Shown piece after piece: positions 3,574 to 37,730 of a stretch of 64,000 nucleotides of DNA. The stretch's first letter is position 1; every line of letters begins with the position of its first letter. A model generated the notes under the pieces. That model had not been told where the DNA came from. It searched no databases and was given only the letters and a program-made list of their open reading frames with translations. The stretch is from positions 25,759 to 89,758 of the forward strand of contig CAYJTG010000003.1 of assembly GCA_964373255.1 (NCBI GenBank), given 5' to 3'. Both the position numbers and the translations under genes were made by a program. Source of the DNA: an uncultured archaeon (lineage in GTDB: Archaea > Aenigmatarchaeota > Aenigmatarchaeia > GW2011-AR5).

Positions 3574-5868
3574 TTGGTGTTTTTTATGCCCAACAATGAG
3601 AAAGAAGACGAAGCCATGCTGAAGGTCGGCGAATTGACAGAGCGTGGCGACTTCGGCCGTGGCATTGCTAGAATATCTGCAAAGGACATGAAAAAAATAG
3701 GCGTCAGCGAAGGCGATGTCATTGAGATGGAAGGCAAAAGAAAGACCGGTGCCATAGCTGTCCGTGCTTATCCTGTTGACGTTGGTCTCGATGTCGTGAG
3801 AATGGATGGACTTGCCAGAAGGAACTGTGGTGCAGGCATTGGTGAGATTGTTAAAATAAGAAAGTCCGATGTGAAGGAAGCAAAATCCGTGACTATTGCA
3901 CCGGCTCGCAAAGGCATAATAATTCACATGGGCGGAAACCTGCTGAAACAGAACCTTCTGATGAGACCACTAGCTACGGGCGACATCATAATTCCTAATC
4001 CTATTGTACAGGATCGGAGGTCACAGACAACACTATTTGAGCAGTTCTTTGGCGTCGATTTCGGCGATTTTCTATTTACACCATTCGGCGAAGAGAAGTT
4101 CGCTGTTGTGAGCACCGAGCCAAAAGGTATTGTGCGCGTGACAAGGTCGACAGACGTTGAGCTGCTGCCACAGGCTACAAGGCCCATGGAGGAAGAGAAG
4201 ATCCCCGAGGTCACATACGAAGATTTGGGCGGGCTGCACGAGGAGATAAAAAAGGTTCGCGAAATGATTGAGCTGCCGTTGAAGCACCCTGAGCTCTTTG
4301 AACGTCTTGGTATCGAGCCGCCTAGGGGTATTCTATTACACGGCCCGCCAGGAACCGGCAAGACACTTTTGGCAAAGGCTGTTGCAAATGAGAGCGGCGC
4401 GAAATTTTTTGTTATTAATGGTCCGGAGGTAATGTCAAAATTTTACGGCGAGTCGGAGGAAAATCTTCGTAAGATATTTGAGCAGGGTGAAAAAAATGCG
4501 CCGAGCATAATTTTTATCGATGAAATAGACTCCATCGCGCCTAAGCGCGAGGAAGTCAAGGGCGAGGTTGAGAAAAGAGTTGTTTCACAGCTGCTCACGC
4601 TTCTGGACGGATTGAAATCCCGTGGAAAAATAATTGTCATCGGCGCGACAAACATACCGAATTCGATCGACCCCGCACTAAGAAGGCCGGGACGATTTGA
4701 CCGTGAAATTGAATTAGGCGTGCCCAACAAGGACGGAAGAAAGGAGATTTTGCAGATCCACACAAGGGGCATGCCGCTCGCAAAGAACGTCGAGCTTGAT
4801 AAAATATCTGAAATAACTTATGGCTATGTTGGTGCAGACCTTGCGGCGTTGAGCAAGGAAGCTGCGATGCACGCCCTCAGGCGCGTATTGCCGGACGTAA
4901 GCGCCATAAAAGATGACAAACCAATACCCATAGACATACTAAAAAAGCTCATTGTAACAAAAGAGGATTTTGACCACGCACTAAAGATTGTTGAGCCTTC
5001 TGCGATGAGAGAAGTACTTATCGAGATACCCAACGTAAAGTGGGATGACATAGGCGGACTGGAAGACGTCAAGAAGCTGTTAAAAGAAACCATTGAGTGG
5101 CCGCTTAAATATCCTGATTCGTACGTAAGACTGGGTATAAAACCACCCGCGGGCGTACTTTTATACGGGCCTCCCGGAACTGGAAAGACACTCCTTGCAA
5201 AAGCCGTGGCTAATGAAAGCGGCGCCAACTTTATTTCTGTTAAAGGGCCTGAACTTTTGTCCATGTACGTAGGCGAGAGTGAAAAGCACGTTCGTGAGGT
5301 TTTCAGGCGTGCAAAGCAGGTTGCACCCTGCGTAATATTTCTTGACGAAGTTGATTCTCTTGTACCAAGAAGAGGTACGTCGAACGACAGCCATGTAACT
5401 GAACGTGTTGTTTCGCAGCTCTTGGCAGAGATGTCAGGACTGGAAGATTTGCACGGTGTTATAGTTATCGCTGCGACGAATCGGCCTGACATTATAGACC
5501 CTGCGCTTCTAAGACCAGGTCGGCTAGACAGGCAGATACTTGTCCATACCCCTGACGATGCTGCAAGGCTGGAAATATTCAGGGTGCACACAAAATCTAT
5601 GCCACTTGCTTCTGATGTAGATATAAACGACGTAACAAGCCAAACAAAGGGCTTTTCAGGCGCAGACATAGAAGCCGTATGTCGTGAGGCTGCGTTGTTT
5701 GCGATGAGAAAAAACATAAGCACAGAGCAGGTAACAAGAAAAGATTTCGAACAGGCGCTGAAAGAAGTGAAGCCGTCTCTTACCGAAGAGATGAACCAGT
5801 TCTACGAGAGCATACTGAAGAAGAAAAAATCGCGCGTCATCGAGGAAGAAGTAAACTACATGGGATAA
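3574..5868 (+). CDS. cdc48: AAA+ ATPase Cdc48 / VAT (VCP-like ATPase). N-domain followed by tandem D1 and D2 AAA modules.
   Basis: Two Walker A motifs (GPPGTGKT, twice). Walker B DEID and DEVD. Both SRH regions present. 764 aa. Start possibly at about 3586 (MPNNEK). Confidence 0.92.
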
Positions 5869-14226: not shown

Positions 14227-16101
14227 TCAGAAACCGAAAATGATTCTTATTATGGTAAGCAGCGACGACGATATGACATTTATTGGATCTGACATTTGTC
14301 CAACAGAAAGCCCAGTAATTACTTCATAACTGCTTTCTGTATCGTTCTGCGATTGGTTTGTGATTTCCATCTCTGTTGTTGGAAGTGACGTATTAAGTTC
14401 TGTGTCATTTATAGCATTAATTACTGGGGGTTCTGCCACATTTATTTCGTTTGTTATATCATTATTTTTGTCGTCAACCCTTACTCGTACACGAAACTTA
14501 TAAACGCCTTTTTCTGTGGTGTTTTCTATCTTGTTCTTAAGATAAAGTATTGTAGACGCTAATGTTGAAAGTTCAACACTCTGTTTATTTGCATCATAAG
14601 TGCCCTTCCACTTATTTTCATTGTTGTCTAACCCTAGTGAAACAGGATTATTGTCTTTGAAAACATACGAGTAAACTGTGAAATTCTTCTGGCTTGTGAA
14701 ATTGTTTGTGATTCTTACGGTTGTTGTAAACTCCTCTTCTATGTGCACGTTTGGCGGGTAGTTTACAACTTCGTACAAGGACACGTTTTGCTTCACAAAT
14801 ACTGTTGTAGTGCCCCCACCACCACCGCTTGTGCCAGAGCTGGATACTATTGTAGTTGTCTTGCAGACCGATGACGAAGACCCCTTAACGTTTATGTTTT
14901 TTGAGTCGATTGCATCAAGGCCTTCTGCAACAATCGCATAGGTGCCGTCAGAAAAAGTGCCGTCACAATTTGATTTTAATTGAACTGGAACTTTCAAGTT
15001 GTACGGTGTGAATTTATTTTCCAGATTCATATTTGTTATATCGCTGATCTTGTTGCCTGTGCTGTTTTTCACGAAAATATCGATAGACGTTTTTGAAGTA
15101 TTGCCCTTGTAAATACTTATAGAAACTTCTGCGGTTTCACCGTATTTTATCTCGTTATCCGATCCCACGTTAACGGATGTTATATTTATGGATGAATCAA
15201 ACTGTGGGCTTGAGCCTTTTACAACGATAACCTTGCTCGCATTATTATTACTCACGTCTGTATCATTGCATCCCGTACTGACAAGGGAAGCTTTGATATA
15301 GTAAGCTTCTGATCCTGTAATGCCATCAGGCGTCCACTGCCTGCCTATTGTTTTTGTGCACAGAAGTTCTGATGTTACTTCCATCGGTGATTTTACGAAA
15401 TTTCCAAAAATATCTTCGACAAAATAGTTTACCGTAGAATTGTGCATGGTATTATTGCACGTTGTATCGTTAACGATTAAATTAAAATTTATTGTCCCTA
15501 TTTCATAAACAACTGAATTTGTGCCTATCGAAAGCTCAAGGTTGCATATAAGTGTGGTGTTTTGCTGAGTCGTATTGGTTTGATTGGTTTGCTGGTTAAT
15601 TTTTGGCTTGTTAACAGCGCCAGGCGTGGGCTCGCATTCTGCAAAGCTGCTGTTGATTATGCAAATGGTTTTACCTTCGGCCGAAACAGGCGAGTATGTT
15701 ATATTGTCAAAAATTTCTGTAGAATTTTTTATCCAGACCGTTTCATTTGCAGAATTCAGAAGGTCTGACCACGAACTGTCTATCACTGGCCCTGTATAAT
15801 TAGAATAATCAGCAAGAAATAAAATCGCGTCCTGTGCAATAACCAAATACCCTCCGGGATTCAAAATCATTGTTCCTTGCCCACCATTTGCAGGCGGCGG
15901 ATTCAATGTATGATCAGTATTACCCGTGTTGAGTTTCCATCCTGTAAGATTGTAGATATCTGAGTCATTATTGTATACTTCTACCCATTCGTGTCCTGTG
16001 TCCGTCCCGTTTGGATTGTGCATTATTTCGTTTATAGAAATTCCATACGATACACTAGAAGAAACAGCTAAAATAAAAATGTACAACAAAATTTTATGCA
16101 T
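14227..16101 (-). CDS. Secreted surface protein. N-terminal signal peptide, lamin-tail (LTD) domain, Asn/Thr-rich region with many N-glycosylation sequons, and a C-terminal TM anchor.
   Basis: Signal-like N-terminus MHKILLYIFILAVSSSVSYG. LTD-like 'ISINEIMHNPNGTDTGHEWVEVYN...GWKL'. More than 25 N-x-S/T sequons. Hydrophobic C-terminus 'LLTIIRIIFGF'. Confidence 0.7.
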   Translation of the reverse strand: MHKILLYIFILAVSSSVSYGISINEIMHNPNGTDTGHEWVEVYNNDSDIYNLTGWKLNTGNTDHTLNPPPANGGQGTMILNPGGYLVIAQDAILFLADYSNYTGPVIDSSWSDLLNSANETVWIKNSTEIFDNITYSPVSAEGKTICIINSSFAECEPTPGAVNKPKINQQTNQTNTTQQNTTLICNLELSIGTNSVVYEIGTINFNLIVNDTTCNNTMHNSTVNYFVEDIFGNFVKSPMEVTSELLCTKTIGRQWTPDGITGSEAYYIKASLVSTGCNDTDVSNNNASKVIVVKGSSPQFDSSINITSVNVGSDNEIKYGETAEVSISIYKGNTSKTSIDIFVKNSTGNKISDITNMNLENKFTPYNLKVPVQLKSNCDGTFSDGTYAIVAEGLDAIDSKNINVKGSSSSVCKTTTIVSSSGTSGGGGGTTTVFVKQNVSLYEVVNYPPNVHIEEEFTTTVRITNNFTSQKNFTVYSYVFKDNNPVSLGLDNNENKWKGTYDANKQSVELSTLASTILYLKNKIENTTEKGVYKFRVRVRVDDKNNDITNEINVAEPPVINAINDTELNTSLPTTEMEITNQSQNDTESSYEVITGLSVGQMSDPINVISSSLLTIIRIIFGF

Positions 16102-16146: not shown

Positions 16147-16974
16147 TTATATGGGTTTCCATTCTTTTATTGCCTTTTCATAGCCGTGCGGCGTGCCGAC
16201 GTCAAAAAGGAAGCCGTCATGAACAAATCCTGTAACACTTCCCTTGCTGCTCAGTATAGAAAACAGCTTGTCGGTCATGACCTTCCCGTTTGGCACGTAT
16301 CTTAGTGCTTCAGGCTCAAATATGTAGAAGCTCGCGTCTATTAGATTGGTAGGCGCGTTCAAAGGCTGGTCAATAAATTCTACCACCTGGTTGCCGTGCA
16401 TTCTCACAACACCGTATTCTGTAGGATCGTTCGAATTTGAAAGTAGGATGGTTGCAAGTGCGCCCTGTTTCCTGTGGAAATTAAATAGCTCTGGTATGTT
16501 AGGATTTATGAGCGTATCTACATTCAAGACCGCAAATGTGTCGTGTATTTTTCCCCTAAGAAGCCGCAGAGCCCCCATCTTGCCGAGAGGCTTTTGTTCT
16601 ACAATATAATCTATCTTAACGCCAAATTTGCTGCCATTACCAAAATGTTCAAATATCTTTTCGTGGTTCTCTCCTACAGTAAGAATGATATTTCTTATGT
16701 CAAATTCCTTTAACATGTTTATCTGGTGCTCCAGAACAGGGCGGCCTTTGATCGGTATAAGCGCCTTAGGTATCTCGTATGTTATTGGTCTCAGCATCGC
16801 ACCGTCGCCACCGGCCATTATTACAACTGTATTCAAGTCTGTTTTTGCAAGGCCTCTCATGATAAGTTGTTCAACCGCGTGTGACCTGTTTCTTACATCT
16901 TCATGGTCGATTGTCTTGTCCAGTTTCCTTAGTATGTCAGATTTTATTGTTATAGTAACGCGCTTAAGAGTCAT
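16147..16974 (-). CDS. Fusion protein: N-terminal ribbon-helix-helix (CopG/Arc-like) domain joined to a sugar-1-phosphate nucleotidyltransferase domain.
   Basis: The first ~45 aa 'KRVTITIKSDILRKLDKTI...RNRSHAVEQLIMRGL' fit a beta-alpha-alpha RHH. It is followed by the nucleotidyltransferase motif 'VVIMAGGDGAMLRPITYEIPKALIPIKGRPVLEHQI'. Confidence 0.65.
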   Translation of the reverse strand: MTLKRVTITIKSDILRKLDKTIDHEDVRNRSHAVEQLIMRGLAKTDLNTVVIMAGGDGAMLRPITYEIPKALIPIKGRPVLEHQINMLKEFDIRNIILTVGENHEKIFEHFGNGSKFGVKIDYIVEQKPLGKMGALRLLRGKIHDTFAVLNVDTLINPNIPELFNFHRKQGALATILLSNSNDPTEYGVVRMHGNQVVEFIDQPLNAPTNLIDASFYIFEPEALRYVPNGKVMTDKLFSILSSKGSVTGFVHDGFLFDVGTPHGYEKAIKEWKPI

Positions 16975-17092
16975 TCATACCACGTATCCACAAAAGTATG
17001 AAAAAGTATGAAATTCCAAACTATTTAAACGTGACATCTATGTTTATTGTTGTGGTTTCTGTGGAATTCAATCGACCACAACCACTAAATCT

Positions 17093-17100
17093 TTAAAATT
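17093..17100 (+). promoter_or_regulatory. Candidate archaeal TATA box (TTTAAAAT) for the heptose-kinase gene. The 16975-17120 region is shared by divergent promoters.
   Basis: The A/T box lies about 21 nt upstream of the ATG at 17121. The RHH-nucleotidyltransferase gene is transcribed divergently from the same region. Confidence 0.3.
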
Positions 17101-17120
17101 ATGTTACCAATGGTGTCACT

Positions 17121-18155
17121 ATGATAATAAGAAGCAGGTCTCCTGTCAGAATATCATTCGGCGGAGGCGGAACAGATATACCGCCTTACTGTTTTGAAAG
17201 GGGCGGCTGCGTAGTGTCGGCAACAATAAACAAATACTCCTATGCAACCCTGCAGAGCCGAGATGACCAAAAAATATTCGTAGAATCTGTCGATTTCCTG
17301 AAAAGCACGGTATTTGGAAATATGTCTGAAATCGTCTATAACAATGAGCTTGATGTCCTGAAAGCTGTAATAAAAAATCTCAATCATACAGGCATGGGCG
17401 CTAATATATGGATGAGAAGTGATGTTCCGCCGCGTTCTGGGCTGGGGTCTTCGGCGGCTGCGTTCGCAGCCATGATAGGTCTTTTCAATCACATGCGTGG
17501 TGAGAAGGCAATGACGAACTATGAAATTGCCGAGCTTGCCTACAAGTTAGAGAGGGAAGAGCTGAAAATAGGCGGCGGGTACCAGGACCAGTATGCAACT
17601 GTATTTGGCGGCATAAATTATATTGAGTTTGCAAGCAACGGTATAAAGGTAAATCCGATAAAAATGAAGAAAGATCACGTACTGGAGTTAGAAAAGCACC
17701 TTGTTATTGCCTACGCTGGCGAAAGGCAGGCAAGCGGCGACATAATTGAGGCTGAAAAGAAGGGTTACAAGGAAAATAAAGAAGTCTTTGAAGCGCTTGA
17801 AAAAACAAAACAAATTGCGCAGGAAATAAGATACGCGATAATAAGGGGTGATTTTGAGAGGCTCGGTGCATTGCTGCATGAATCATGGGAAACAAAGAAA
17901 AAACATTCTGCCTTGGTGTCGCACCAACGCATAAATGATATATACGATCTGGCTAGAAAGAATGGCGCCATAGGCGGTAAAGTGTCTGGTGCAGGTGGCG
18001 GAGGGTTTATGTTTTTCCTGTGCGAGCCTAACAAGGAACATAATGTTGTTGCTGCTCTGGAAAAAATCGGTGCTAAACCTGTCAACTTCACATTCGATTT
18101 CGATGGTCTGCAGACATGGGAGCCTGCAAACCGTACCCCCATGATTTTGAATTAA
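17121..18155 (+). CDS. hddA: GHMP-family sugar kinase, likely D-glycero-alpha-D-manno-heptose-7-phosphate kinase (HddA-like).
   Basis: GHMP motif 'PPRSGLGSSAAAFAAMIG'. C-terminal 'GGKVSGAGGGGFMFFL'. Sits in an operon with gmhA and the gmhB-hddC fusion. Confidence 0.65.
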   Translation: MIIRSRSPVRISFGGGGTDIPPYCFERGGCVVSATINKYSYATLQSRDDQKIFVESVDFLKSTVFGNMSEIVYNNELDVLKAVIKNLNHTGMGANIWMRSDVPPRSGLGSSAAAFAAMIGLFNHMRGEKAMTNYEIAELAYKLEREELKIGGGYQDQYATVFGGINYIEFASNGIKVNPIKMKKDHVLELEKHLVIAYAGERQASGDIIEAEKKGYKENKEVFEALEKTKQIAQEIRYAIIRGDFERLGALLHESWETKKKHSALVSHQRINDIYDLARKNGAIGGKVSGAGGGGFMFFLCEPNKEHNVVAALEKIGAKPVNFTFDFDGLQTWEPANRTPMILN

Positions 18156-18172
18156 AATGAAGAAGTGATGTT

Positions 18173-18748
18173 ATGAACTACCTAGAGGAAAAAATGAATC
18201 TTCATAAAAAAATGGTTGATTTATTGGATTTGAAATCAATAGAAAGGGTTGCGGATGCGATATCAAAATGCTATAGAAGCGATGGCAAACTATTGATATT
18301 CGGCAATGGCGGTTCTGCGGCCGATGCGCTTCACTTTGCTGCGGAGTTCGAGGGACAGCTATCATCTGTAGACAAAAATCGGAAAGCGCTGCCAGCCATA
18401 ACACCGTCTAATTTGTCTGCATTGACAGCCATAAGTAATGATTATAATTATGATACTAGCTTTCTCCGTTTTGTTCAAGCTAATGCAAGGTCTAGTGATG
18501 TTGTCGTAGGCATAAGTACAAGTGGCAATTCAAAAAATGTGATTAACGCAATAAAAGAAGCCAAGAACATTGGTGCAACAACAGTTGGCTTTACCGGTTA
18601 TGACGGCGGTCAGTTAAAAGACTTTGTTGACATCCTTATGAATGTTCCTGCTTCTAATGTTTCAATAATACAGGAAGGCCACATTATAGCTTATCATCGC
18701 GTATGTGCTCTTGTTATAAAGGAATTGTTTGGTTATGATGCATTATGA
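18173..18748 (+). CDS. gmhA: Phosphoheptose isomerase (sedoheptulose-7-phosphate isomerase), SIS domain.
   Basis: 'LIFGNGGSAADALHFAAEF' and 'VVGISTSGNSKNVINAIKEAKNIGATTVGFTGYDGG' closely match GmhA signature regions. Confidence 0.85.
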   Translation: MNYLEEKMNLHKKMVDLLDLKSIERVADAISKCYRSDGKLLIFGNGGSAADALHFAAEFEGQLSSVDKNRKALPAITPSNLSALTAISNDYNYDTSFLRFVQANARSSDVVVGISTSGNSKNVINAIKEAKNIGATTVGFTGYDGGQLKDFVDILMNVPASNVSIIQEGHIIAYHRVCALVIKELFGYDAL

Positions 18749-20013
18749 AGCCTGCAGTTTTTTTGGACAGGGATGGTGTAGTAATTACAGCAACGCACCT
18801 AGTTACGAAAATGCAGGAAGTCGAAATAGAAAAAAATGCGCCTGACGCAATAAGAATTTTTAATGATCTTGGATTCAAGGTAATAATAGTTACAAACCAG
18901 CCGCAAGTGGCCCGCGGCCTGTGCACAGAAGAAGACGTCATCAAGATAAATAAAAATATAAAGAAAACCATGGAAAAAGATGGAGCTATAATTGATGATA
19001 TATATTTCTGCCCGCATCATCCGGAGATGCATGAAGATGTGCCGGAGTATGCAAAAAAATATCGAATAGATTGTCGTTGCAGAAAACCGAAGACAGGGAT
19101 GATATTAGAGGCGGCAAAAAAACATGATATAGATCTTTCAAAATCATTTATGATCGGTGATCGCACGGTTGATGCGATGACAGGCAAGAATGCCGGCATA
19201 AAGACAATTCTAGTAAAAACTGGCAGAGCAGGAATGGATGGCAAATACGATACTATTCCTGATCATATATGCGCCGATCTGATGGAAGCTGCAAAACTTA
19301 TCAAAAGATCAGTTACAACCAAGGCTGTCATCCTAGCTGGTGGCAAGGGCGAACGCCTGATGCCATTAACAAAGGACATACCAAAGCCGATGATAGAAAT
19401 AAGCGGCAAGCCCGTCTTGCAGCATCATATAGGACTATTGAAGAAATACGGGATAAATGAAATAATAGTCTGTGCGAGCTATCTTATCGACAAGATAAAA
19501 GACTTTTTTGGAAATGGTAAAAATTTTGGTGTGCAAATATATTATCCCGATGAGCCTGAGCAGCTCGGCACAGGTGGCGCAATAAAGAACGCAGAACAAT
19601 TTATCAAAGGCTGCAAAAATTTTATTGTATTGAATGGCGATGTCGTGACAAACATAAATTTGTCTGCATTACTTGATTTTCACGAAACTAAGGACTGTTT
19701 AGCTACAATTGTTGTTCGTAAGAGTGATCATCCGATAGACAGCGATATCGTTCAGTTGGATGAGAACAGGGTTATAAGGTATATAGGCCGTGGGCAGAAA
19801 AAGCACAAAGTCGCAAATACAGGCATAATGATATTAAAAGCTAGCATACTCGGGCACATAAAGAAGGGTGTATCGAACATCGAGACAGACGTGGTGTTTC
19901 GCATGCTTGATGACTATAAAATTTGTGCATATTTTTCCAACGATTACATAAAGGACATGGGCACTTTTGACAGGCTTGAAAAGGTCCGTAGGGAATTTTC
20001 GCTGATTTCCTGA
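18745..20013 (+). CDS. gmhB-hddC: Bifunctional D,D-heptose-1,7-bisphosphate phosphatase (GmhB, HAD) fused to D-glycero-alpha-D-manno-heptose-1-phosphate guanylyltransferase (HddC-like nucleotidyltransferase).
   Basis: N-terminal 'AVFLDRDGVV', 'CPHHPE' and 'CRCRKPKTGM', which are GmhB motifs. C-terminal 'KAVILAGGKGERLMPLTKDIPKPMIEISGKPVL', a nucleotidyltransferase motif. Confidence 0.8.
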   Translation: MKPAVFLDRDGVVITATHLVTKMQEVEIEKNAPDAIRIFNDLGFKVIIVTNQPQVARGLCTEEDVIKINKNIKKTMEKDGAIIDDIYFCPHHPEMHEDVPEYAKKYRIDCRCRKPKTGMILEAAKKHDIDLSKSFMIGDRTVDAMTGKNAGIKTILVKTGRAGMDGKYDTIPDHICADLMEAAKLIKRSVTTKAVILAGGKGERLMPLTKDIPKPMIEISGKPVLQHHIGLLKKYGINEIIVCASYLIDKIKDFFGNGKNFGVQIYYPDEPEQLGTGGAIKNAEQFIKGCKNFIVLNGDVVTNINLSALLDFHETKDCLATIVVRKSDHPIDSDIVQLDENRVIRYIGRGQKKHKVANTGIMILKASILGHIKKGVSNIETDVVFRMLDDYKICAYFSNDYIKDMGTFDRLEKVRREFSLIS

Positions 20014-20032
20014 GCTTATAAATCTTTAGTTT

Positions 20033-20971
20033 ATGTTGATAGTTATGAAAATGCTTGTAACGGGCGGCGCGGGATTTATAGGCTCAAATCTAGCCGAAGC
20101 ACTTGTGAATGAGGGGCATGAGGTTATAGTGCTTGATAATTTCTCAATTGGCAGGGAGGCTAATCTAAAGAATGTACTAGATCATATAAAATTAGTAAGG
20201 GGCGATATAAGGGATTTTGAACTCCTGTTAAAAATCACGAAAGATATAGATGTTATATTCAATCAAGCGGCTGCATCGTCGTCACACATGTTTTTGGAGA
20301 ATCTGAAAGATGCCTTATCAGTCAACATAGACGGTTTTGTACATATCCTTAATGCCGCGAAGATTAACAACGTAAAGCGTGTTGTTTATGCATCAACATC
20401 ATCCTTGTACGGAAACAACAAGCCACCGTTAAGAGAGGATATGAAAATTGCGCCGGTAAATTTTTATGCATCATCTAAGCTTATGAATGAGCACATAGCA
20501 GCCTTGTACAGCCTTGAATACGGACTGGAGACAATAGGCCTTCGTTACATGAGCATATACGGTCCACGCGAAGAATGCAAGGGACGATTCGCAAACATGG
20601 TAAGCCAGTTCTTGTGGTCGATGCAGAAAAACGAGCAGCCGATAATTTACGGCGACGGCATGCAAACAAGAGATTTTACATTTGTAAAAGACGCTTGCAT
20701 GGCAAATATACTTGCAGCAACTGCCAAGAAGGGCATGAATGATATATTTAATGTTGGCACAGGCAAGTCGACAGATCTTAACAGGCTTGTAGAAATCCTT
20801 AATATGAAATTAAACAAAAGCGTAACACCAAAATACATATCAATGCCTATAAAGAACTACGTATTTTCACAGATGGCGGACATTGAAAAAATCAAGAACG
20901 CATTCGGCTATGAACCTAGATCTACGCTGGAAAAAGGTATCGATGAAATGCTTTCCACAACTCTCAAATGA
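20033..20971 (+). CDS. NAD-dependent NDP-sugar epimerase/dehydratase (extended SDR).
   Basis: 'LVTGGAGFIGSNL' Rossmann motif and a YxxxK context. 312 aa. Start likely at about 20045 (MKMLVTGG). Confidence 0.7.
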   Translation: MLIVMKMLVTGGAGFIGSNLAEALVNEGHEVIVLDNFSIGREANLKNVLDHIKLVRGDIRDFELLLKITKDIDVIFNQAAASSSHMFLENLKDALSVNIDGFVHILNAAKINNVKRVVYASTSSLYGNNKPPLREDMKIAPVNFYASSKLMNEHIAALYSLEYGLETIGLRYMSIYGPREECKGRFANMVSQFLWSMQKNEQPIIYGDGMQTRDFTFVKDACMANILAATAKKGMNDIFNVGTGKSTDLNRLVEILNMKLNKSVTPKYISMPIKNYVFSQMADIEKIKNAFGYEPRSTLEKGIDEMLSTTLK

Positions 20972-36912: not shown

Positions 36913-37730
36913 TTATCATTCTCCTCCTCCATAGGCGGCGGGATTATAAGCCCTTCGTAGGCCATCTTGTTGGCATTTTCGTAAGCCTCGATAGTGCTGA
37001 TATCTATCCAGAATGGGAGCTTTCTCAAAAATCCACATAATTTATTTTCTGCTGCGAGTTGTGGAAAAAGCGAGTTCTCTACTTTGGTTTTTTCTCTAGG
37101 TAAAAGATCAAAAACATCTGATACCTCGATTATATAGTAGCCGCCATTCGCGAATTTCGATGGCGCTTCTGGTAATTTTGGCTTTTCGACAAATTTTTCT
37201 ATAAGATCGAACCCATTTACATTCTTTATTTTTGCTATTCCGAATCTGTTTAATTCATTTTCAGGAGCTTCGAACAATAGAACTGTCGAAGAAACGCCAA
37301 GTTCTTTTCTGGCACGATTGTGGTATTCTACCATTTCGTAGAGATTAAAATTGGTAAGGTTATCGCCATAAACAACAATTATTTGGCCTTTTCTGATGCC
37401 GAGTTCCTCTAGTATGTATCTTATGTCGCCTGCTGTTTCTTTTTGTGGAACAGGTATTGTTTTTATAGGAATTTTATAGCCTGCATTCTTAAGATAAAGA
37501 TCAATGCACATGCCATGTATGTGCGACAGTGTACGCTCCTGTATATCATCGCCGATTGTACCTGGTATAGCAACAATTATTTCGTCTACACTTGCATTGA
37601 CGCTCTTAATAACCCAGTCAATCATAGGGCTTCCTTTTATCGGAAGCAGTGGTTTTGGTATGCCATACGTGAGTGGCCTTAATCTCGTGCCTTTTCCAGC
37701 AGCCAAAATTATCGCTTTCATTTCTACCAA
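36909..37730 (-). CDS. Sugar-1-phosphate nucleotidyltransferase, UDP-glucose pyrophosphorylase-like.
   Basis: 'KAIILAAGKGTRLRPLTYGIPKPLLPI'. Confidence 0.75.
   Translation of the reverse strand: MVEMKAIILAAGKGTRLRPLTYGIPKPLLPIKGSPMIDWVIKSVNASVDEIIVAIPGTIGDDIQERTLSHIHGMCIDLYLKNAGYKIPIKTIPVPQKETAGDIRYILEELGIRKGQIIVVYGDNLTNFNLYEMVEYHNRARKELGVSSTVLLFEAPENELNRFGIAKIKNVNGFDLIEKFVEKPKLPEAPSKFANGGYYIIEVSDVFDLLPREKTKVENSLFPQLAAENKLCGFLRKLPFWIDISTIEAYENANKMAYEGLIIPPPMEEENDK

Follow-up and report, generated by a model that had tools for sequence, protein, structure and literature searches.

A widespread archaeal fusion of a ribbon-helix-helix domain to a sugar nucleotidyltransferase fold, a candidate autoregulator with a conserved upstream TCATAC repeat

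Within a 64,000-nucleotide stretch of contig CAYJTG010000003.1, assembled from an uncultured archaeon of the Aenigmatarchaeota and hereafter called the window, we identified a gene (positions 16147-16974, minus strand; open reading frame list, ATG start) encoding a 275 aa-long protein. Its product combines an N-terminal ribbon-helix-helix (RHH) domain (residues 1-45; 16840-16974, minus strand) with a sugar-1-phosphate nucleotidyltransferase (NTase) fold resembling that of GDP-mannose pyrophosphorylases (residues 50-270; 16165-16827, minus strand). The pairing of these two domains in one polypeptide is confirmed, and the interpretation of the protein as a transcription-factor fusion is strongly supported. 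We propose, with a probability of about 0.6, that it is an autoregulating one-component regulator, built from an enzyme, whose NTase-derived domain serves as a sensor.

The N-terminal domain was recognised by profile comparisons and by its predicted structure. In a Pfam scan, RHH_1 matched residues 5-43 over profile positions 1-38 of 39; the score was 18.7 bits in the whole fusion protein, under the cut-off of 20.5 bits, and 23.3 bits, over that cut-off, for residues 1-50 by themselves, and an RHH_1 match was obtained for all 30 of the family N-termini tested (best 7e-8). When a profile of these N-termini was compared with all PDB sequences, the RHH domain of Escherichia coli NikR (1q5v, 2hza, 2hzv) was retrieved at E=1.8e-7 over residues 2-44, together with P. 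horikoshii NikR (7e-4) and CopG; the NikR match of the fusion-family profile ends at residue 46. The AlphaFold2 model of the fusion protein (predicted local distance difference test, pLDDT, 88.8; 47-sequence alignment) places an extended segment at residues 1-11, helices at residues 12-21 and 30-43, and the first NTase strand at residues 49-53, with a pLDDT of 75-88 for the N-terminus and agreement between the isolated-domain and full-length models. Because the helices precede the first NTase strand and are modelled at this confidence, the N-terminus is not disordered and does not belong to the catalytic fold, and the RHH domain proposed in the initial annotation is thus borne out. In a Foldseek search with the full model, every structure retrieved was an NTase whose alignment began near residue 50, and no solved structure spanned both domains.

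The initial annotation had suggested a search for orthologous fusions, and these proved to form a large family which is hence not rare. A protein 100% identical to the window fusion is present in public data (P0001). A protein search with the fusion gave 824 matches, the best 120 clusters of which are about 275 aa long, 42-75% identical, mostly from Aenigmarchaeota, and cover 92-100% of the query, bar one fragment (77%). Where given, their annotation names are 'NTP transferase domain-containing protein', 'sugar phosphate nucleotidyltransferase' or 'mannose-1-phosphate guanylyltransferase'. When one genome per GTDB species was scanned, at least 584 loci were recovered; 80 of them were fetched, and all 80 align from query residues 1-8 on, i.e. 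with the RHH domain included; the fusion is therefore found in at least 80 species, and probably in hundreds. The fetched loci come mostly from DPANN archaea and Altiarchaeota (Aenigmatarchaeota, Altiarchaeota, Woese-, Nano-, Parv- and Iainarchaeota), with a minority from metagenome-assembled genomes labelled Methanosarcinales, an Asgard Atabeyarchaeum chromosome and a few bacteria of the candidate phyla radiation (CPR). A search of 1.84 billion representatives with a profile of the RHH domain only gave 823 matches, and those checked among the matches listed were the fusion, a fragment of it or a derivative of about 210 aa.

The genomic contexts of the family fall into three classes. In a Pfam scan of the neighbours of 61-63 loci, the immediate downstream gene encodes a four-domain phosphoglucomutase/phosphomannomutase (PGM/PMM) in 23-24 loci, and in 10 loci a GHMP kinase gene is the neighbour on the upstream, divergent side. 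Classification by tblastn assigned 28 loci to a PGM-downstream class, 15, the window included, to a heptose-operon-upstream class, and 32 to a class of other contexts. The commonest partner across the family is accordingly the downstream PGM/PMM (28 loci), not the heptose operon. We found no description of an RHH-sugar-NTase fusion in the full-text literature, in which coverage of subscription journals is limited and absence remains unproven, in line with the initial annotation, which knew of none. The literature matches that pair RHH with 'nucleotidyltransferase' concern toxin-antitoxin systems throughout. A reading of the protein as an RHH antitoxin joined to an NTase toxin (MNT/AbiE) was rejected, as the NTase has a sugar GT-A-like fold and lies in a single polypeptide, not in a Pol-beta-type two-gene module.

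The RHH strand occupies approximately residues 4-10 (KRVTITI), and an essentially invariant motif, RNRSHAVE, lies at residues 28-35. In the family alignments, R5, T9, D19, R30, H32, A33 and E35 are invariant and T7, N29 and S31 nearly so; for R5, T7, T9 and the N29-E35 motif, this full or near-full invariance holds across phyla and in each of the three context classes. The profile match aligns R5, T7 and T9 with R3, T5 and T7 of E. coli NikR, which we take to be the residues that contact bases in the 2HZV structure.

A conserved repeat upstream of the gene provides the second line of evidence. The fusion gene is separated from hddA, the first gene of a heptose operon transcribed divergently on the plus strand from position 17121, by an intergenic region of 146 bp (16975-17120); the initial annotation had described this shared region and a TATA-like box within it, and both were recovered here. 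The TATA box of the fusion gene (TTTAAATA; 17022-17029, minus strand) lies 47 nt from the ATG, and a putative TATA-like box of hddA (TTTAAAAT; 17092-17099, plus strand) lies only 21 nt from its ATG, which implies a near-leaderless hddA transcript. Starting 10 bp downstream of the fusion gene's TATA box is a direct repeat with a 10-bp period, TCATAC-TTTT-TCATAC (full unit TTCATACTTT; 16996-17011, minus strand), which overlaps the expected transcription start and is our predicted operator. A third, inverted half-site, GTATGA (16975-16980, minus strand), abuts the ATG 15 bp downstream of the tandem repeat, so that the minus strand before the start codon reads TTTAAATA-GTTTGGAATT-TCATAC-TTTT-TCATAC-TTTTGTGGATACGTG-GTATGA-ATG. 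The layout TCATAC-N4-TCATAC-N14/15-RTATGA also occurs in four other loci (L001, L010, L013 and L020). The exact tandem site occurs once in the window, and a search for further sites in the 64 kb with up to 2 mismatches found 8 against 4.9 expected, giving no sign of a wider regulon there. A half-site with 1 mismatch, CTATGA, next to the hddA start (17119-17124) was dismissed as being within chance expectation.

Across 73 non-redundant loci (690 kb of locus sequence), an unbiased count of upstream hexamers ranked GTATGA/TCATAC first by the number of loci with at least two copies (28/73), and 46 of the 73 loci have at least one. The tandem form TCATAY-N4-TCATAY occurs 36 times in the 690 kb, and 30 of these sites lie no more than 150 bp upstream of the fusion gene, where background would predict 0.10. 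Three of the six outlying sites are found at the true operon start, namely before a ROK gene preceding the fusion gene (L008), before the first of two tandem paralogues (L017) and in L046, while a fourth, in L058, apparently lies before another paralogue with an RHH domain, the identity of that gene being presumed. A dozen further sites are palindromic (e.g. GTATGA-N5-TCATAC), and the Altiarchaeota arrangement is TCATAT-N13-RTATGA. Of 31 sites, 29 are oriented like the gene, and across loci the site keeps to one of two stereotyped offsets, counted from the TATA box's first base: +17/+18, as in the window, or -26/-27. The repeat accompanies the fusion gene regardless of the neighbouring genes, and this conservation argues that the RHH domain binds DNA. 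A general promoter element was rejected because nearly all of the repeats (33 to 34 of the 36 sites) lie upstream of members of this gene family, and a leader-RNA element because the sites lie upstream of the TATA box in many loci; in addition, Rfam (gathering threshold) and tRNA scans detected nothing in the 64-kb window, so that the intergenic region shows no RNA element. The E. coli NikR operator is GTATGA-N16-TCATAC, and its half-site is identical to the hexamer upstream of the fusion gene (PMC7055735).

These data bear on a rival explanation in which the RHH domain would be an oligomerisation or structural addition that does not bind DNA, the repeats belonging to another regulator or to a promoter element. 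RHH domains are obligate dimers and could stabilise an oligomer, and the isolated domain gave no significant structural match; but the residues equivalent to NikR R3/T5/T7 and the NRSHAxE motif are invariant across phyla, the repeat is confined almost entirely to the family's upstream regions, it corresponds to the half-site of the closest solved RHH relative, its position upstream of the TATA box in many loci rules out an RNA element, and the RHH domain is still intact in derivatives whose enzyme domain has decayed (see below). We therefore regard this explanation as very improbable.

Two other sequence features of these upstream regions were recorded. Between the divergent TATA-like boxes of the window lies a perfect 8-bp inverted repeat, GTTGTGGT-N18-ACCACAAC (17049-17056 and 17075-17082), surrounded by partial CCACA/TGTGG repeats. 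It is absent from the two upstream regions inspected for it (L001 and L010) and was thus not counted among the conserved elements; a second regulator, specific to this genome, may use it to control the hddA promoter. Bacterial (CPR) members of the family lack TCATAC repeats, and one of them (L052, Gottesmanbacteria) has CTATACTC at a 10-bp period just before the ATG in a region of about 100 bp, which may be a diverged operator or merely a -10 promoter element.

The C-terminal part of the protein has the complete fold of a sugar NTase. NTP_transferase (PF00483) matches residues 50-270 with E=9.6e-36, and Foldseek aligned the fusion model with VTC1 (7x8j) at E=1.4e-23 over 225 columns with a root-mean-square deviation of 2.1 Å. 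The nearest solved chains by sequence are 7whr, 8x7s, 7x8j and 7d72 and, more distantly, HddC (5xhw), all of which align from residue 50 on; 7whr, VTC1 7x8j and GMPPB 7d72 are GDP-mannose pyrophosphorylases and 8x7s is a cyanobacterial UTP-glucose-1-phosphate uridylyltransferase. The NTase domain of the fusion has no C-terminal left-handed beta-helix. An assignment as an HddC or ManC equivalog was rejected, the scores being far under the cut-offs (HddC, NF049965, 82 bits against 300; man1P_GTase, NF052502, 147 against 440).

The initial annotation had described this domain as a complete nucleotidyltransferase, which holds for the fold but not for a canonical catalytic signature. In the window protein, the signature (GGDGAMLRPITYEIPK) reads GDGAM...PK instead of GxGTR...PK: K70 is kept, and Met60 (codon 16795-16797, minus strand) occupies the column of the catalytic Arg in an alignment to the GGfGTRLRP of 7whr. 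Gln203 (codon 16366-16368, minus strand) stands in the column of the Lys of the EKP motif, likewise by alignment to 7whr, and Gln was seen there in no other member compared. The EKP lysine is presumably a phosphate contact, corresponding to RmlA K162/163, and we take D153 and D258 to be the two metal-binding Asp residues. Since both the signature Arg and the EKP Lys are missing, the window protein may be a sensor rather than an enzyme.

Degeneration of the signature follows genomic context. The Thr-Arg of GxGTR is present in 26 of 28 PGM-linked members against 1 of 15 heptose-linked ones, and the Arg in 28/28 against 4/15, the remainder having N, K, H, S, G or M or a deletion of the loop; the EKP Lys is retained in 28/28 PGM-linked, 32/32 'other' and 12/15 heptose-linked members. 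Among the closest homologues with a readable motif (105 of the best 120), about 41 have Arg at the signature site, and several others have a shortened loop. Decay is most advanced in a subfamily of about 210 aa (201-217 aa; P0172, P0233, P0245, P0137 and P0260), in which the RHH domain is intact and the GxGTR...PK loop is gone. Their C-terminal domain gives no Pfam NTP_transferase match and is nevertheless NTase-derived (hhalign probability 99.5 and 98.9), so that these proteins are apparent pseudoenzyme regulators.

A fully active bifunctional enzyme has to be weighed against the sensor that we favour. The window protein would then synthesise a nucleoside diphosphate sugar (e.g. GDP-mannose or GDP-heptose) and repress its own promoter, with occupancy of the active site setting its affinity for DNA, on the pattern of PutA, BirA or RbkR. 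The complete fold, the retention of K70, D153, D258, E126, G131 and R62 and an NTase domain conserved as well as the RHH domain are in keeping with such an activity, and the PGM-linked relatives are fully canonical and are encoded in one operon with the enzyme supplying their substrate. Set against this are Met60 in place of the signature Arg and Gln203 in place of the EKP Lys, the variation (N, K, H, S, G, M) or loss of the Arg column within the clade, the HddC already encoded by the heptose operon, and the fact that no PGM/PMM gene is found within the 64-kb window. For the window protein itself, we consider full activity unlikely.

The heptose operon (17121-20971, plus strand; Pfam and NCBIfam matches) encodes, in this order, an HddA-like GHMP kinase, GmhA, a GmhB-HddC fusion and an epimerase/dehydratase, and is followed by a glycosyltransferase cluster. 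The NCBIfam scores are all under the equivalog cut-offs (HddA 272, GmhA 165, GmhB 148 and HddC 114 bits). The HddC of the operon is 34% identical to the fusion protein and retains the signature Arg; as the GmhA/HddA/GmhB/HddC set is complete, the enzymatic step is redundant with the NTase of the fusion. Divergent pairing with the heptose operon is seen in all 15 loci of the clade (among them L001, L002, L004 and L008), even as the order of the operon is shuffled (kinase first, a kinase-isomerase fusion, isomerase first, an extra NTase or an inserted ROK gene).

This pairing raises the question of whether the protein chiefly represses or activates the divergent GDP-heptose operon, self-regulation being incidental. 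The persistence of the hddA/gmhA partnership in 15/15 clade loci despite shuffling and gene fusions is what such a role would predict, and in four relatives with short intergenic regions of about 35-90 bp (L002, L004, L018 and L020) the repeat falls within or beside the promoter region of the partner operon. Conversely, the only site in the window is at the gene's own promoter, none being present at the hddA TATA box, and most members of the family reside away from heptose genes; a primary role of this kind is possible but on balance doubtful. Because the operator of the window (16975-17011) is placed on the gene's own promoter and the TATA box of hddA is some 80 bp away, the data support autoregulation, whereas control of the heptose operon is read from synteny; such control nevertheless appears plausible, given the conserved synteny and the sites in or beside the partner promoter in relatives. 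Of the coupling between sugar levels and pathway expression put forward in the initial annotation, the transcription-factor part thus stands, strengthened by the conserved upstream repeat, and the control of the heptose operon is suggested by gene order.

Several observations weigh against an autoregulator with a sensor domain. The isolated 50-aa RHH monomer gave no significant match in Foldseek (best E=1.0), although its top, non-significant matches were the RHH proteins CdbA, MazE-mt1 and SvtR. The RHH domain is not better conserved than its partner, mean pairwise identity being 52% for the RHH against 53% for the NTase domain, and the latter is clearly still under selection. The family alignment shows K70, D153, D258, E126 and G131 retained throughout and R62 with almost no variation, so catalysis may survive with a non-canonical arrangement. 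On the DNA side, no convincing second site was found at the hddA promoter, another factor could bind the repeat, and the three half-sites have no simple mapping onto a tetramer.

The domain identities, the size of the family, its conserved synteny, the conserved and position-specific repeat and the residue patterns are established computationally. The autoregulatory model that we favour can be detailed as follows; it infers that the fusion protein binds the repeat, what the ligand is and which sign the regulation has, that catalysis is lost and that the heptose operon is controlled. Two RHH domains would pair into a two-stranded sheet reading TCATAC/GTATGA through R5, T7 and T9. Adjacent dimers would fill the tandem TCATAC-N4-TCATAC, 10 bp past the gene's own TATA box and over the expected transcription start, and a further dimer might occupy the inverted GTATGA by the start codon, 21 bp away on the same helical face. 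Occupancy of the operator would block recruitment of RNA polymerase and repress the gene. Archaeal repressors usually bind downstream of the TATA box, and autorepression is favoured for this reason; the Woesearchaeota sites upstream of the TATA box could instead serve activation, or occlude transcription factor B. The NTase-fold domain would provide oligomerisation and a pocket for a nucleotide-sugar, a sugar-1-phosphate or a nucleoside triphosphate, and occupancy of this pocket would alter the affinity for the operator, tying expression to the nucleotide-sugar pool.

The function of the pocket may differ among members of the family. The PGM/PMM-linked form, which is the commonest and presumed ancestral one, keeps all catalytic residues and probably works both as a genuine hexose-1-phosphate NTase and as the repressor of the operon that encodes it, i.e. 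as a trigger enzyme. In the heptose-linked Aenigmarchaeota clade, the domain would most likely act mainly in sensing, with GDP-heptose or a related GDP-sugar as a possible ligand. Taken further, the family would represent a nucleotide-sugar-responsive transcription factor on a sugar-NTase fold, with a NikR-type RHH head and a TCATAC operator by which DPANN archaea would set the synthesis of their surface-glycan precursors, a proposal that we advance tentatively and of which we know of no described example. If it is true, the family records a transition from enzyme to sensor, from canonical enzyme through degenerate signature to the pseudoenzyme of about 210 aa.

To our knowledge, almost nothing is known of gene regulation in DPANN archaea, few of which have been cultured. 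The family offers a candidate DPANN transcription factor with a predicted operator, ligand class and target promoter, and the predictions are testable wholly in vitro. The regulatory half of these proteins is invisible in current annotation, and pathway reconstructions may be counting non-catalytic copies as enzymes. The graded series from canonical enzyme to degenerate signature to decayed domain would be a natural example of an enzyme turning into a sensor, and the reuse of a NikR-type half-site with another spacing and another effector domain is informative on the rules of DNA recognition by RHH proteins.

Additional observations were made on the surroundings of the fusion gene. Some loci hold two RHH-NTase paralogues each (L017, in tandem at 5001-5819 and from 5848 onward, L051, L086 and, apparently, L058); in L017, the first copy has a degenerate-type context and the second a canonical GKGTR motif. 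The window contains a third NTP_transferase-type gene (36966-37727, minus strand), 27% identical to the NTase domain of the fusion. Fusions among the heptose enzymes vary, with GmhB-HddC in the window (18745-20013, plus strand) and HddA-GmhA in L002 (4339-5913). Pentose-phosphate genes are present in the operons of two loci, namely RpiB and ribulose-phosphate epimerase in both L002 and L004, triosephosphate isomerase (TIM) in L002 and transketolase in L004, and would supply sedoheptulose-7-phosphate. Directly downstream of the fusion gene, the window encodes a 624-aa protein (14227-16101, minus strand) that begins with a hydrophobic segment, contains a lamin-tail domain (LTD) and is rich in N-x-S/T sequons. 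It may be a glycoprotein on which the neighbouring glycan pathway acts; in L001 and L010, too, the fusion gene precedes a gene for a similarly sized LTD protein. In several Aenigmarchaeota (L002, L004 and L008), the genes after the fusion start with a conserved pair for an uncharacterised protein of about 200 aa and a DUF2797 protein; a metallo-beta-lactamase-fold gene comes next in L004 and L008, and an RNA 3'-phosphate cyclase gene is found further downstream in all three.

An enzyme-derived one-component regulator is an established concept; the domain pair, the operator, the distribution in DPANN archaea and Altiarchaeota and the gradient from enzyme to sensor appear to be undescribed. NikR is the closest solved relative of the RHH domain (E=1.8e-7) and shares with the fusion the R-x-T-x-T strand, the NRS-x-A-I motif, the half-site GTATGA/TCATAC and the general architecture, in which the RHH comes first and a domain for ligand binding and oligomerisation forms the C-terminus. 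However, the C-terminus of NikR is a small ACT-like nickel-binding tetramerisation domain, whereas the fusion has a sugar-NTase fold of 225 aa, and the NikR half-sites are inverted and separated by N16, whereas those of the fusion gene are tandem direct repeats with a 10-bp period plus one inverted at N15; the ligand of the fusion is presumably a nucleotide-sugar, not a metal. As the defining C-terminal domain of NikR is absent and replaced by an NTP_transferase fold, an identification of the fusion as NikR was rejected, only the head being NikR-like.

The classic RHH trigger enzyme is PutA, in which an RHH domain on a proline dehydrogenase/pyrroline-5-carboxylate dehydrogenase represses a divergent promoter, including that of its own gene. 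PutA thus resembles the fusion in joining an RHH domain to a metabolic enzyme, but its enzyme domains are unrelated, and it is bacterial, fully catalytic and switched by flavin redox state and membrane binding. Looser parallels are BirA, NadR, RbkR and NrtR, in which a DNA-binding domain is attached to an enzyme, or to an effector derived from one, and the cognate pathway is regulated; that DNA-binding domain is a (winged) helix-turn-helix, not an RHH. The nucleotidyltransferase of NadR is a nicotinamide mononucleotide adenylyltransferase and not a GT-A-like sugar NTase. NrtR illustrates how an enzyme fold (Nudix) can be taken on as an effector domain (PMC2330246), and RbkR is an archaeal enzyme-regulator fusion that was found through comparative genomics (PMC5397151). 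For residues 50-270, the best sequence and fold matches are the GDP-mannose pyrophosphorylases (7whr, 7x8j and 7d72, human GMPPB/GMPPA) and HddC (5xhw), none of which has a DNA-binding domain; the pyrophosphorylases carry a C-terminal beta-helix, which both the fusion and HddC (5xhw) are without, and the window protein is without the GxGTR Arg and the EKP Lys. Within this group, GMPPA is a non-catalytic paralogue that senses GDP-mannose, and it provides a precedent for the use of the fold as a nucleotide-sugar sensor.

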